IMG/VR virus record: IMGVR_UViG_2734482568_000007
Reading direction: 5' to 3' (one strand)
DNA from: a virus
Taxonomy: Duplodnaviria; Heunggongvirae; Uroviricota; Caudoviricetes
Length of the DNA stretch: 4,397 nucleotides
Shown: one piece after another, positions 866 to 3,609 of the stretch
Numbering within the stretch: position 1 is the first letter of the stretch
Layout of the letters: each line of letters opens with the position of its first letter
Made by a program: the position numbers and the translations under genes
Notes under the pieces: generated by a model
What the model was told of the DNA's origin: nothing
Seen by the model: the letters and a program-made list of their open reading frames with translations, nothing else
Database searches by the model: none

Positions 866-912
866 CAACAAAAAACCCGCCGAAACGCTGAGAGATCACA
901 GCGATGGGCGGG
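866..912 (-). terminator. Rho-independent terminator at the 3' end of the hok transcript
   Basis: Minus-strand RNA: CCCGCC-CAU-CGCUG-[UGAUCUCU]-CAGCG-UUUC-GGCGGG followed by UUUUUUGUUGUUU. Two stacked GC-rich stems followed directly by a U run. Confidence 0.55.
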
Positions 913-915
913 TTA

Positions 916-933
916 AGTGCGGGTGCGTTGAGG
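916..933 (-). promoter_or_regulatory. fbi-like 3' element of the hok mRNA, complementary to its 5' end (1304-1320)
   Basis: Plus 916-933 agtgcgggtgcgttgagg is the near-perfect reverse complement of plus 1304-1320 cctcaagcacccgcagt (16 of 18, one 1-nt bulge). On the transcript this gives 5'-end/3'-end pairing as in hok-family mRNAs (tac/fbi). Confidence 0.45.
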
Positions 934-953
934 ATGCCTGACACATCAGAGGT

Positions 954-981
954 GGGCGGGGATGGGATCAGCTCCCCGCCC
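954..981 (-). other. Stable GC stem-loop just 3' of the hok stop codon
   Basis: Perfect 8-bp inverted repeat gggcgggg (954-961) / ccccgccc (974-981) with a 12-nt loop. No U run follows on either strand, so it is a structural element rather than a terminator. Confidence 0.4.
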
Positions 982-989
982 GGTCACTC

Positions 990-1145
990 TTACTTCCTGG
1001 ATTCGTAGTCTACGAAGACAGCGACCTCCGTCTGGCCGGTTCGGATTCGTACCTCACAGAGGTCTTTCCTCGTTACCAGTGCCGTCACTATGACGGTTAA
1101 ACAGATGACGATCAGGGCGATTAACATCGCCTTTTGCTGCTTCAT
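990..1145 (-). CDS. hok: Hok/Gef-family type I toxin, 51 aa membrane peptide (HokD/RelF-like)
   Basis: Translation MKQQKAMLIALIVICLTVIVTALVTRKDLCEVRIRTGQTEVAVFVDYESRK is near-identical over most of its length to the HokD/RelF and Gef sequences as I remember them; only the C-terminal 7 residues differ. ATG at 1143-1145 with AAGGAG 9 nt upstream; TAA at 990-992. The track's 70-aa ORF is an in-frame upstream extension (ATGs at 1202 and 1172). Confidence 0.9.
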   Translation of the reverse strand: MKQQKAMLIALIVICLTVIVTALVTRKDLCEVRIRTGQTEVAVFVDYESRK

Positions 1146-1321
1146 AGCCTGCTTCTCCTTGCCTTTCGGCATGTAAGAGGCTAACCTACATGTGCAAAGC
1201 ATGAAATTGGCCTCAGATTAATGTTAAGCGTCTTGCCGGACGCGTAATGTTAACTGGGGCTTTTCTCTATCTGCCTTTTGGTGTTCATGCCTGAAGCAGA
1301 TAGCCTCAAGCACCCGCAGTC

Positions 1322-1351
1322 ATTCTACTTACCTCGCCAATATGAAATCAA
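1322..1351 (-). promoter_or_regulatory. Predicted promoter of the hok mRNA (-35 TTGATT, 18-nt spacer, -10 TAGAAT on the minus strand)
   Basis: Minus-strand reading: TTGATT (plus 1346-1351), 18 nt, TAGAAT (plus 1322-1327). The predicted start near 1314-1318 coincides with the tac-like segment 1304-1320, giving a transcript of about 440 nt to the terminator at 866-912, typical for hok-family mRNAs. Confidence 0.35.
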
Positions 1352-1372
1352 TCAGAAAGGTGCCCCATAAAA

Positions 1373-2059
1373 TCACTCCTTCTCTTCTTTACCGTAGTGG
1401 AGTTGACCAATTTTGATAAGAGGGCGTCCCTGAGATTTGCGGTGTAGATTGGTATCGCGCAGAGAATACACACAGCCACAATATTCCTGCTGATAGAATT
1501 TTTCGCGCTTGCTGATTTCAATCATACGGGACGAGCCGCCCTGCTTGCGCCAGTTATAATCCCAGTACACCATGCCCGGATAATGCGCGACGGCTCGCCG
1601 CCCACAGTCGTTAACCTGCTGCATATTTTTCCAGCGTGAAATGCCCAGTGAACTGCTGATCACACTGAAACCATTTTCAGCGGCGTACAGCGCTGTCCGC
1701 TCAAAACGCATGTCAAAACACATGGTGCAACGGATCCCTCGTTCGGGCTCCCATTCCATTCCTTTGGCTCGTTCAAACCAGTTGTCTGTGTCGTAATCAG
1801 CATCAATAAACGGCACGCCGTGTTGTTCAGCAAAGCGAATATTCTCATCCTTACGAATTAAATACTCTTTCTGAGGATGAATGTTCGGGTTGTAGAAAAA
1901 GATGGTGTAGTCGATTCCCGAGGCCTGAAGCGCCTCCATCACCTCACCGGAACATGGAGCACAGCAAGAGTGCAGTAGTAGTTTGTTTGCCCCGTTTGGG
2001 AGCTCCAATTTGGGCCGTTTGAAATCAGCAACTGTCATAAATATGTTTATTGGGGTCAT
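1373..2059 (-). CDS. queH: QueH-like protein (DUF208, epoxyqueuosine reductase family), 228 aa
   Basis: Translation carries the [11 protein letters not shown] motif I associate with DUF208/QueH, plus further Cys pairs (RCTMC, CGC). Full-length ORF with ATG at 2057-2059; an alternative ATG at 2036-2038 exists and neither has a strong SD. Stop at 1373-1375. Confidence 0.8.
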
Positions 2060-2206
2060 AAAAATATCAAAGAGTGTAGCATTAGAACGGGGCTATCGGA
2101 AACAGATGTGTGACTGCTCCCCGCCCTTTCGGGTGGTCTCCTGATGATTTGAGGGTGCAGAAATCCCTCCGGTTAAGGATTAAATTTTTAACAGTGCTAA
2201 ATTTAA

Positions 2207-2563
2207 TTATTCAGTTCTGGATTTTGTCGCCCTGCGTATCCGCGCTTTCGCGTTACGCTCAATCTGTATCAGCTTTTCTATATTTCTCCGCCTTTCCTGT
2301 TCCTCCTGGCGCAATAGCCTTACATCATCTGCCAGTCTGGTTTCTCTTTTTGCCACAGAGAGCATCCAGTCAAACGGCTCCACAACCGCACCGCAGATTT
2401 TACAGCGGACCTGACGCTCTTTTTCGTCAACCCGTACAGAGGCGTGATGGCAATATGGTCTTTCCGATGGCTCATAAAGAAAATTAACCTGATTACGAGG
2501 GTCATCCTCTTTTACCGGAAATAAAACGATATTGCTTAACTCATCTTCTGGTTTTATTTCCAT
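2207..2563 (-). CDS. Hypothetical small phage protein, 118 aa, with a CHH...CxxC cluster (putative metal-binding) and a highly charged Arg/Glu-rich C-terminal tail
   Basis: ORF 2207..2620. The preferred start is ATG 2561-2563 with AAGGAGAGGAG ending 6 nt upstream. An alternative ATG at 2618-2620 directly abuts the stop of the upstream gene (TGA-ATG) and would add 19 residues. Motif CHHASVRVDEKERQVRCKICG; tail QEEQERRRNIEKLIQIERNAKARIRR. Confidence 0.55.
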   Translation of the reverse strand: MEIKPEDELSNIVLFPVKEDDPRNQVNFLYEPSERPYCHHASVRVDEKERQVRCKICGAVVEPFDWMLSVAKRETRLADDVRLLRQEEQERRRNIEKLIQIERNAKARIRRATKSRTE

Positions 2564-2620
2564 GCTCCTCTCCTTTGATGCGAATGCCAGCGGTAATTGA
2601 AGCCTGATAGCTAATTTCAT

Positions 2621-3043
2621 TCACAGTATCGCCTCCTGAAAATTACCCTGATAGAAAGCCAGTACACGCTGCATAGCTTCGCTCTTCCGGCACTCGCGAC
2701 AGATTATATTCAGGCGCCTGTCGTAGCGGCGTATTTCTCCGTCAGGTAATGACCAGATAAGGTCCGGATCAACAACAACCGGTTTCCTCACCTTTACTCT
2801 CGAGAGTTTTTTGCGGGCGCTTTGCCAGTCCTTGCGAGCCTGTTCAGACGGGAATAAGCCGTAGCCAGAATTATATACATCACCACTTGCGACCAGTTCT
2901 ATGCATAAGCGACCGACAGACGCACGACTGATACCTGTTTCATCTGACAACTGCCGAATCGTGACCCGACCGTCCTGATGCACGAGTTCCACAATTCGCG
3001 TCTTCAGTTCTTCCCGCTGTTCGGGAGTAAAAGGTTTCGCCAT
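2621..3043 (-). CDS. Phage helix-turn-helix/winged-helix protein, 140 aa; position matches the YdaW/DUF1627-type gene that follows the DnaC-like gene in Rac-like prophages (family name from memory, unverified)
   Basis: ATG at 3041-3043 with AGGAGG 4 nt upstream, 14 nt after the DnaC-like stop (TAG 3058-3060). Predicted HTH segment TIRQLSDETGISRASVGRLCIELVASG. Confidence 0.65.
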   Translation of the reverse strand: MAKPFTPEQREELKTRIVELVHQDGRVTIRQLSDETGISRASVGRLCIELVASGDVYNSGYGLFPSEQARKDWQSARKKLSRVKVRKPVVVDPDLIWSLPDGEIRRYDRRLNIICRECRKSEAMQRVLAFYQGNFQEAIL

Positions 3044-3057
3044 AAATCCTCCTGAAA

Positions 3058-3609
3058 CTACTTAACAACCCTCGAATGGCTAACATTCGGACGCCAGCTC
3101 TCCCAGTTAAAATTCACCCAGCGCCNNNNNNNNNNNNNNNNNNNNNNNNNNNNNNNNNNNNNNNNNNNNNNNNNNNNNNNNNNNNNNNNNNNNNNNNNNN
3201 NNNNNNNNNNNNNNNNNNNNNNNNNNNNNNNNNNNNNNNNNNNNNNGATAGCTGCCGCTAAGTGATTCTTCCCGGTACCAGGTTTTCCGCTGAACGCAAA
3301 ATTTGTACACCCGGTCATCAGTTCATCGGCGATGGATTTCGCCTGGCTTAACGCGTATCGCTGGCCGTCGTTCTGCACCTGGTAATTCGCAAACGAGCAT
3401 TTACGGTGCAACGGCTGGATGCCTGAGCGATTCAGAATTTTTTCCACCCGCAACTGGCGATTCAGGCGGTTGATCTCCTCGCTACGTTTCTGGCCTTCAG
3501 CAAGTTGCCACTCGCGCCACTCCGCTACCGTTCTGAATGGGGCGGTTACATGTGGCGGGGTCAGTCGGCGGATGCGTTCCAGAACGCCGCCTGTCGCAAT
3601 ATTTTTCAT
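3058..3609 (-). CDS. DnaC-like replicative helicase loader (prophage paralogue, YdaV-type), interrupted by a 121-nt N run
   Basis: N-terminal 121 aa align with E. coli DnaC as I recall it (MKN..., NRSGIQPLHRKCSFANYQV, Walker A FSGKPGTGKNHLAAAI). After the N run the same frame gives RWVNFNWESWRPNV, matching the DnaC C-terminus (WVIFNWDSYRSRV). ATG at 3607-3609 lies 6 nt after the upstream TAA. Confidence 0.85.
   Translation of the reverse strand: MKNIATGGVLERIRRLTPPHVTAPFRTVAEWREWQLAEGQKRSEEINRLNRQLRVEKILNRSGIQPLHRKCSFANYQVQNDGQRYALSQAKSIADELMTGCTNFAFSGKPGTGKNHLAAAIXXXXXXXXXXXXXXXXXXXXXXXXXXXXXXXXXXXXXXXXXRWVNFNWESWRPNVSHSRVVK
3126..3246. other. Run of 121 N (assembly gap or masked sequence) inside the DnaC-like gene
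   Basis: Positions 3126-3246 are all n. The reading frame happens to be preserved across the run, but it covers only 41 codons where canonical DnaC has about 105 residues between Walker A and the C-terminal motif. Confidence 0.95.

Follow-up and report, generated by a model that had tools for sequence, protein, structure and literature searches.

Why would a prophage carry an enzyme for the last step of queuosine synthesis when its host already has one? The question is raised by queH, a minus-strand gene in a stretch of 4,397 nucleotides from a virus of the Caudoviricetes (IMG/VR record IMGVR_UViG_2734482568_000007). The whole stretch is called the window below, and positions are counted from its first letter. 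It corresponds to the early-right/nin region of a prophage of the lambdoid (Rac/Qin-like) type, and every gene in it is on the minus strand. Taken together, the analysis suggests that the gene probably encodes a working QueH, which would give lysogens a route from epoxyqueuosine (oQ) to queuosine (Q) that does not depend on cobalamin. The enzyme is an ordinary, well-conserved QueH, and its mechanistic novelty is low. What is new is the vehicle and its anatomy: a queH with a putative promoter of its own, fused to a hok/sok toxin-antitoxin locus and moving among lambdoid prophages.

A complete QueH enzyme

A preliminary description of the window, made from the sequence, had placed a DUF208/QueH-type protein at 1373-2059. 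The minus-strand open reading frame (ORF) 1373..2059 encodes 228 amino acids and matches the Pfam profile PF02677 (QueH, DUF208; IPR003828) with an E-value of 1.9e-65 and 220.6 bits, against a gathering score of 23.5, over profile positions 1-174 of 175. The protein also matches QueH from T. maritima (PDB 7lc5) with an E-value of 5e-22, and RefSeq annotates every copy listed as "epoxyqueuosine reductase QueH". No NCBIfam profile matched the window QueH, which is an absence and not a contradiction.

The ORF is genuine and holds a full-length QueH, and to that extent the preliminary description stands; its start codon does not. Two in-frame ATGs are present, at 2059 and at 2038 (Met8), and the conserved start is best read as ATG 2038, because three sources agree on it: the RefSeq coding sequence has 666 nt and starts at ATG 2038, the Enterobacter orthologue ORFs begin at the equivalent of Met8, and an ATG is missing from the position equivalent to 2059 in the Klebsiella plasmid copy. 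This reading gives a queH coding sequence at 1373..2038 (minus strand) of 221 amino acids plus stop, while the longest ORF reaches ATG 2059.

The candidate metal ligands were surveyed in 150 representatives of 50%-identity clusters, aligned to the window protein with HMMER. Among the representatives, cysteine occupies the C32 column in 118/119, C33 in 119/119, C111 in 138/142, C114 in 134/138, C194 in 86/87 and C196 in 87/87. Position 36 is cysteine in 116, aspartate in 4 and serine in 1 of the 121 representatives. The seven columns read CCCCCCC in 60 of the 64 representatives that cover all of them, and CCDCCCC in the other 4. The window protein has all seven candidate positions (C32, C33, C36, C111, C114, C194 and C196), and it reads CCAPC where T. 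maritima QueH reads CCAPD. The mutants C9S and D13N of T. maritima QueH, both in the PDB, mark the equivalent ligand sites. QueH proteins are expected to bind a [4Fe-4S] cluster and an additional iron. We considered whether Cys36, in place of Asp13 of T. maritima, is a lost metal ligand, and rejected this: cysteine is the majority form of the family and aspartate the rare one. The profile search and the family alignment thus bear out the QueH-type protein first described, with its candidate metal ligands kept, and the comparison with a characterised QueH proposed there finds all seven positions in place.

The rest of the protein tells the same story. In an alignment of 49 sequences with identities down to 35%, all 15 of the invariant columns are kept in the window protein, and N59, R69, E106, R110, R118, K144, Q191 and G195 are invariant in the 49 sequences and present here. 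An AlphaFold2 model built on that alignment has a mean predicted local distance difference test score (pLDDT) of 94.5 and a predicted template modelling score (pTM) of 0.89. Foldseek aligned the model to 7lc5 with an E-value of 1.5e-14, a target-normalised template modelling (TM) score of 0.92 and a root-mean-square deviation of 1.2 A over 179 columns. The folds that come next, those of TtuA and other adenine-nucleotide alpha-hydrolases, reach TM scores of at most 0.5.

An addition to queG, kept by selection

The prophage copy does not stand in for a missing host enzyme. Among 5,426 complete genomes of Escherichia coli, queH DNA was found in 995 (about 18%), with at least 80% of the gene covered in 985 of them; the sites number 1,014 on chromosomes and 3 on plasmids. 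All 5,426 genomes carry queG, and therefore queH in E. coli is always an addition, as the preliminary description had supposed. Its more general statement, that enterobacteria use QueG, is true of E. coli and too broad beyond it, since many Enterobacterales have a chromosomal queH.

The location in a prophage accessory region was also claimed early, and it is confirmed by an annotated genome. E. coli FDAARGOS_944 (NZ_CP065613.1) has a stretch 99.9% identical to the window, within a prophage that runs from an integrase adjoining ybhA to tail genes, a region of 41.8 kb with 62 annotated features. There queH has the replication genes on one side and the nin/Q region on the other, in the same orientation. 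An isolated temperate Escherichia phage, HannyBb, carries queH as well, at 96.5% identity and annotated as hypothetical; among isolated phages it is the only clear carrier.

The prophage gene is maintained by strong purifying selection. An intact 228-codon ORF was found in 82/82 prophage-type loci. Across 20 distinct alleles, 29 codons vary synonymously only and 5 vary with an amino-acid change, and the pooled pairwise ratio of nonsynonymous to synonymous rates (dN/dS) is 0.04. Against chromosomal orthologues, to which the prophage QueH has a core identity of 83-97% (96% for E. hormaechei), five comparisons with unsaturated dS gave dN/dS of 0.013-0.034, with 0.013 against E. hormaechei. Tajima relative-rate tests with six close chromosomal sisters and three outgroups gave a chi-square below 3.84 in 18/18. 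The low dN/dS and the absence of a rate shift argue against both decay and neofunctionalisation.

Capture and spread of the gene

Close homologues of the prophage QueH, 78-92% identical, were found in 80 species in a genome scan. Chromosomal orthologues occur in Erwinia, Serratia, Rahnella, Pectobacterium, Proteus, Providencia and Enterobacter. Of the 80 species, Shigella flexneri and E. albertii alone have the same phage neighbours of queH. In Erwinia, Serratia and Rahnella/Ewingella the genes flanking queH stay the same within a genus and are not phage genes, which fits a native gene in these genera. Outside phages, Enterobacter, Scandinavium and Kluyvera have the closest copies. The queH of E. 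hormaechei adjoins a fragment of an integrase-family gene, between housekeeping genes.

The same lineage is also found on plasmids. A QueH of the prophage lineage, 92.8% identical, is carried by many Klebsiella plasmids; on one of them, a conjugative plasmid of type IncFIA, no phage genes lie around it. Altogether 302 plasmid records have a QueH, of which 136 are predicted to be conjugative; 99 come from Klebsiella. That the gene has been mobilised more than once, into different hosts, suggests a trait on which selection can act. On the K. pneumoniae IncFIA plasmid pKpVSI78_2, queH is at 6001-6669 of the locus, with IS26 and genes for TIR-domain and EAL-domain proteins around it.

What was taken up seems to be a compact unit. 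When the prophage queH was compared with the chromosomal queH of E. hormaechei by blastn, similarity was 83.5% over 740 nt and was confined to window positions 2102..1366. This putative captured unit (1366..2102, minus strand) consists of the upstream element, the ORF and 7 nt: about 45 nt are shared upstream, and similarity stops 7 nt past the queH stop. The chromosomal copies run on from there into a GC-rich 3' hairpin, which the prophage copy does not have.

The short upstream part may well be a promoter. The element TGCTACACT (2073..2081, minus strand) resembles an extended -10 and is the putative native queH promoter. Its form TGCTACA(C/A)T (2081-2073) stands at a fixed distance from the queH ORF in 13/80 species, for a background of 0.0077 per 210-nt window. 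Upstream of it, TTCCGATAGC (2092..2101, minus strand) can be read as holding a -35-like hexamer, TTCCGA, with a 17-nt spacer to TACACT, and so as a candidate partner element. The hexamer overlaps the block CCGATAGC, which is conserved in prophage, island and plasmid copies, and the Klebsiella plasmid queH has both TGCTACACT and CCGATAGC upstream. About 50 nt upstream of queH are kept in every prophage class, and the sequence beyond differs. All this fits a native promoter that travels with queH.

A queH-hok/sok cassette

Within the prophages, queH seems to travel together with the gene after it. The IMG/VR sample was the best 80 of 188 matching stretches, which are 99-100% identical at the protein level. 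Homology to the window begins at 2109 in 61/80 loci and ends at 908-911 in 44/80, and hok is downstream of queH in 65/80; the survey of gene neighbourhoods proposed in the preliminary description thus finds queH in a cassette with hok in most prophage loci. Because the shared homology breaks at these two points and hok so often follows queH, the interval 908..2109 (minus strand), common to otherwise different lambdoid prophages, can be read as a single mosaic cassette: by its break-points, queH and hok/sok behave as one unit of about 1.2 kb shuffled among lambdoid prophages.

The cassette has a second ending. In 13/80 loci homology to the window ends at about 1210. Five of these were read, and in each the hok leader is retained and the ORF is replaced by a gene for a cytosine-C5 methyltransferase (FCGAGG..GPPCQGFS). 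In O157:H7, at Z1768, a methyltransferase and a restriction endonuclease of the NgoMIV family occupy the hok position; a restriction-modification system appears to have been inserted into a type I toxin-antitoxin locus. The idea that the 15 loci without hok are a hok-free ancestral form was rejected, since the leader was kept and the ORF replaced in the five that were read.

Other prophages have other genes in the slot of queH. The Qin-like prophage of E. coli B, read in strain B-DidR, has the order queH-hokD-rem, and Qin of K-12 MG1655 has relB-relE-hokD-rem. E. coli B strains therefore have a QueH and K-12 has none, which matters for laboratory studies of tRNA modification. Judged by these gene orders, the slot upstream of hokD is a hotspot that takes queH, relBE or methyltransferase fragments.

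What the enzyme would do for the lysogen

E. coli does not synthesise cobalamin (vitamin B12) de novo and needs to import it. Frey and colleagues are said to have found, in 1988, that the oQ to Q step of E. coli depends on cobamides, and Zallot and colleagues reportedly complemented a queG deletion with other QueH proteins in 2017. QueG and QueH are assigned one reaction, oQ34-tRNA to Q34-tRNA (EC 1.17.99.6; PMC5372724). QueG is cobalamin-dependent (PMC4646009; PMC5175355) and is counted among the cobamide-dependent enzymes of E. coli (PMC11841063), and QueH is described as an iron-dependent enzyme (PMC9508795).

The reading we prefer is that the window gene product is a cobalamin-independent iron-sulfur epoxyqueuosine reductase, which would convert oQ to Q at position 34 of tRNA-Asp, tRNA-Asn, tRNA-His and tRNA-Tyr. 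The gene would have been captured from a chromosome or plasmid lineage of the Enterobacteriaceae, as a compact unit that left the 3' hairpin behind, and would have been joined directly to hok/sok, making the cassette of about 1.2 kb now found in lambdoid (Rac/Qin-like) prophages. A lysogen would gain a second, B12-independent route to Q, that is, a lysogenic-conversion ("moron") trait, if the upstream element is a working promoter. Since queH is oriented with the early-right operon, it would be expressed in lytic growth too. That the window gene encodes an active QueH we regard as very likely, given its profile match, ligands and fold. That B12 independence is the benefit for which the prophage gene was selected is an even bet.

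Several points weigh against this reading. Activity in E. coli, the function of the promoter, expression in the lysogen and the B12 benefit are things that we infer. Corrinoids are usually within reach of E. coli living in the gut, so that the gain may be slight or limited to certain conditions, and the literature consulted does not establish that Q and oQ differ in function enough for selection to act. The promoter-like hexamers score 8/12, and a consensus scan did not report the site. There is also no recognisable Shine-Dalgarno sequence before either ATG 2059 or ATG 2038.

The alternative that survives best puts the benefit in the phage. Here queH would be transcribed mainly from the early-right operon, after induction or infection, and would complete Q on host tRNAs during lytic growth, for optimal decoding of the NAU/NAC codons (Asn, Asp, His, Tyr) of the phage regardless of B12. 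The position of queH between the replication and nin/Q genes, in their orientation, speaks for this, as do its retention by the viable phage HannyBb and the four tRNA genes of the FDAARGOS_944 prophage, which therefore invests in translation. However, none of those four tRNAs (Gly, Thr, Arg, Ile) is a Q-tRNA, a single lytic cycle allows only limited tRNA turnover, and the promoter-like element accompanies queH on plasmids and islands too, which suggests expression independent of a phage. We consider a lytic benefit unlikely as the main explanation.

Somewhat less probable still is that queH serves no selected function in E. coli, being kept as a passenger by its linkage to hok/sok and by a recombination hotspot. 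It does travel with hok/sok as one cassette, and the slot before hokD carries other cargo elsewhere (relBE in K-12 Qin, methyltransferase fragments). A passenger would hardly be under purifying selection as strong as that on this protein (dN/dS about 0.04, 82/82 intact), and queH is retained where a restriction-modification system has replaced hok, and is found without hok on plasmids.

The preliminary description had also raised an enzyme repurposed for another substrate, such as deazaguanine-type modifications; it might then act on a 7-deazaguanine derivative in DNA or on a free nucleoside instead of oQ-tRNA. Phages do use 7-deazaguanine chemistry in DNA modification (PMC6884629) and the QueH fold is related to QueC-like enzymes of phages, but this is very improbable here, as the protein keeps 83-97% core identity to chromosomal orthologues and every invariant residue, and has dN/dS of 0.01-0.04 with no acceleration relative to its chromosomal sisters, and as Hutinet et al. 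(PMC6884629) saw no QueA, QueG or QueH together with phage DNA-modification clusters. No DpdA/TGT-family gene and no preQ0 gene (FolE, QueD, QueE or QueC) is among the 62 annotated features of the prophage or in the neighbourhood of queH in HannyBb, as far as annotation goes.

Returning to the cobalamin-independent route, a wider version of it is tempting, though we hold it with rather less than even confidence: queH may be a mobile B12-independence module for tRNA queuosine, a single enterobacterial lineage with its own promoter that has spread into bacteria that rely on QueG. The vehicles of such a module, a proposal equally tentative, would be lambdoid prophages in E. coli, Shigella and E. 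albertii, conjugative plasmids in Klebsiella, and small islands in Enterobacter.

If this wider reading is true, lysogeny would shift host tRNA to Q instead of oQ when corrinoids run short or can no longer be taken up, as in btuB mutants that phages or colicins have selected. QueH would also be the first enzyme from the tRNA-specific part of queuosine synthesis to be known on a phage, as far as the literature found. If the enzyme is active, about 1 in 5 of the E. coli strains sequenced, E. coli B among them, would complete queuosine without B12, and K-12 could not; strain comparisons in experiments on tRNA modification, translation fidelity and B12 limitation would be affected. A tRNA-modification enzyme would join the lysogenic-conversion genes.

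The junction with hok/sok

Directly after queH come all the components of a hok/sok type I toxin-antitoxin locus: a Hok ORF, an overlapping mok, a leader and fold-back elements. A promoter-like site for hok, TTGATT-18-TAGAAT (1322..1351, minus strand), lies 21 nt 3' of the queH stop codon (1373-1375). The hok mRNA leader (1140..1315, minus strand) includes tac (1315-1304) and the Sok target, and matches the full Rfam model RF01794 (sok) with 117 bits and an E-value of 3.8e-27, against a gathering score of 59. From the Rfam alignment, the 5' end of the hok mRNA is predicted at 1315. The reading frames of mok (990..1202) and hok (990..1145), both on the minus strand, share one frame; the product matches Pfam HOK_GEF with an E-value of 9.8e-23, is called hokD in RefSeq and belongs to phrog_251 (MokW-like). 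The hok 3' region (870..933, minus strand) has an fbi-like element at 933-921 and, at 912-870, a hairpin with a T-run that resembles a terminator. Apart from one bulged C, tac (1315-1304) is complementary to fbi (933-921), the expected fold-back arrangement.

The preliminary description had also noted that the queH stop lies directly against the hok promoter with no terminator between them, and the promoter and terminator scan of the window agrees. A simple terminator scan across 800-2700 reported none; it missed the hairpin at 912-870 owing to its long loop. From the queH stop to the hok promoter, neither the scan nor inspection by eye found a terminator-like site. Since both a terminator and the chromosomal 3' hairpin are absent, transcripts from queH or from further upstream should enter hok, and read-through is anatomically possible.

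Neighbouring genes of the window

The gene order in the window is replication-type genes, a DnaC/YdaV-like ATPase, DUF977, a Zn-ribbon protein, queH, mok/hok, a 95-amino-acid ORF and a DUF1367/NinB-like gene. The ATPase gene (3058-3609) is not fully readable, since a run of 121 N at 3126-3246 masks its middle. The DUF977 protein (2621-3043, minus strand) belongs to phrog_142, named "Ren-like exclusion protein" in PHROGs, and its gene is the usual upstream neighbour of queH. The Zn-ribbon protein (2207-2620, minus strand, 137 amino acids) matches Zn_Ribbon_TF of Pfam weakly, below the gathering score, and belongs to phrog_1621, of unknown function. Its gene lies upstream of queH in only about 16/80 prophage loci, and for this reason counts as a mosaic insert of its own, placed between the DUF977 gene and queH. 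After it comes a hairpin rich in GC, which has a GAAA loop (CCACCCGAAAGGGCGGGG) and no T-run (2119-2136, minus strand), just outside the cassette boundary at 2109.

With DUF977, hok/sok and the restriction-modification variants, the stretch resembles an accessory zone rich in exclusion and defence genes. The PADLOC defence profiles gave no match for QueH, the Zn-ribbon protein, the 95-amino-acid ORF or Mok, and sub-threshold noise only for DUF977. In the FDAARGOS_944 prophage, the four tRNA genes (Gly, Thr, Arg, Ile) are at 17575-17885 of the locus, with the Q-like region on one side and the lysis genes on the other, and none of them encodes a queuosine-modified tRNA.

What databases and literature hold

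Databases already identify queH, and its occurrence on phages seems to have gone undiscussed so far. In the viruses that they surveyed, Hutinet et al. (2019) detected no homologue of QueA, QueG or QueH (PMC6884629). In the literature on QueH or epoxyqueuosine reductase together with phages or prophages, no paper was found that discusses a phage copy, and among the viral structures of BFVD there was no QueH-like structure.

Of the matches in phage collections at 33-49% identity, most are to unannotated gut-virome contigs or to very large, possibly bacterial records, and these were not counted as phage carriage. Some of the "phage" QueH records are 280-380 kb long, or are unannotated fragments credited to phages of Acinetobacter, Staphylococcus and Listeria; these large or fragmentary records may be mislabelled bacterial sequence.

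There is a gap in annotation, with the gene "hypothetical" in HannyBb and the family, phrog_3217, of "unknown function" in PHROGs. The profile of phrog_3217 starts at residue 41 of the window protein. Like several database representatives, it begins at the internal Met41 (window 1373-1939), and so does not include CCAPC, with the first three ligand cysteines. This looks like a truncated gene call that has been propagated and hides the QueH identity in phage annotation.

Comparison with known systems

The characterised QueH of T. maritima (PDB 7lc5, 7lc7, 9deu) has the same fold as the window protein, and the two share the six invariant cysteines, a seventh ligand position and the invariant residues. 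They are about 30% identical, and the seventh ligand is Asp13 there and Cys36 here. The window protein has about 25 extra residues at the N-terminus and about 25 at the C-terminus, which are common to the gammaproteobacterial orthologues. Unlike the T. maritima gene, the window queH is borne by a prophage.

The QueH proteins of the Enterobacterales (E. hormaechei, Scandinavium, Kluyvera, Erwinia, Serratia, Proteus and the Klebsiella IncF plasmids) are much closer, with 78-93% identity and the same start codon, and the closest of these relatives have the same TGCTACACT element upstream. The chromosomal and plasmid genes have housekeeping or plasmid neighbours and a 3' hairpin of their own, whereas the prophage gene has the hok promoter instead.

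QueG (YjeS) is assigned the same reaction as QueH, and both are present in every E. coli that has queH. The folds are unrelated: QueG uses cobalamin and a [4Fe-4S] cluster, and QueH is described as an iron enzyme, without cobalamin.

The Dpd clusters of phages (DpdA with FolE/QueC/D/E) also bring queuosine/7-deazaguanine pathway enzymes on a phage. They hold the preQ0 branch and a DNA transglycosylase and have no QueA, QueG or QueH (PMC6884629), whereas this prophage, by its annotation, has only the tRNA-specific enzyme of the last step.

An arrangement like that of the window is relBE-hokD of K-12 Qin. There too, cargo lies directly upstream of hokD and runs in the same direction, and rem and Q follow downstream. 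In K-12 Qin, hokD is presumably co-transcribed with relBE. The cargo of K-12 Qin is a toxin-antitoxin pair, and the cargo in the window is a tRNA-modification enzyme.

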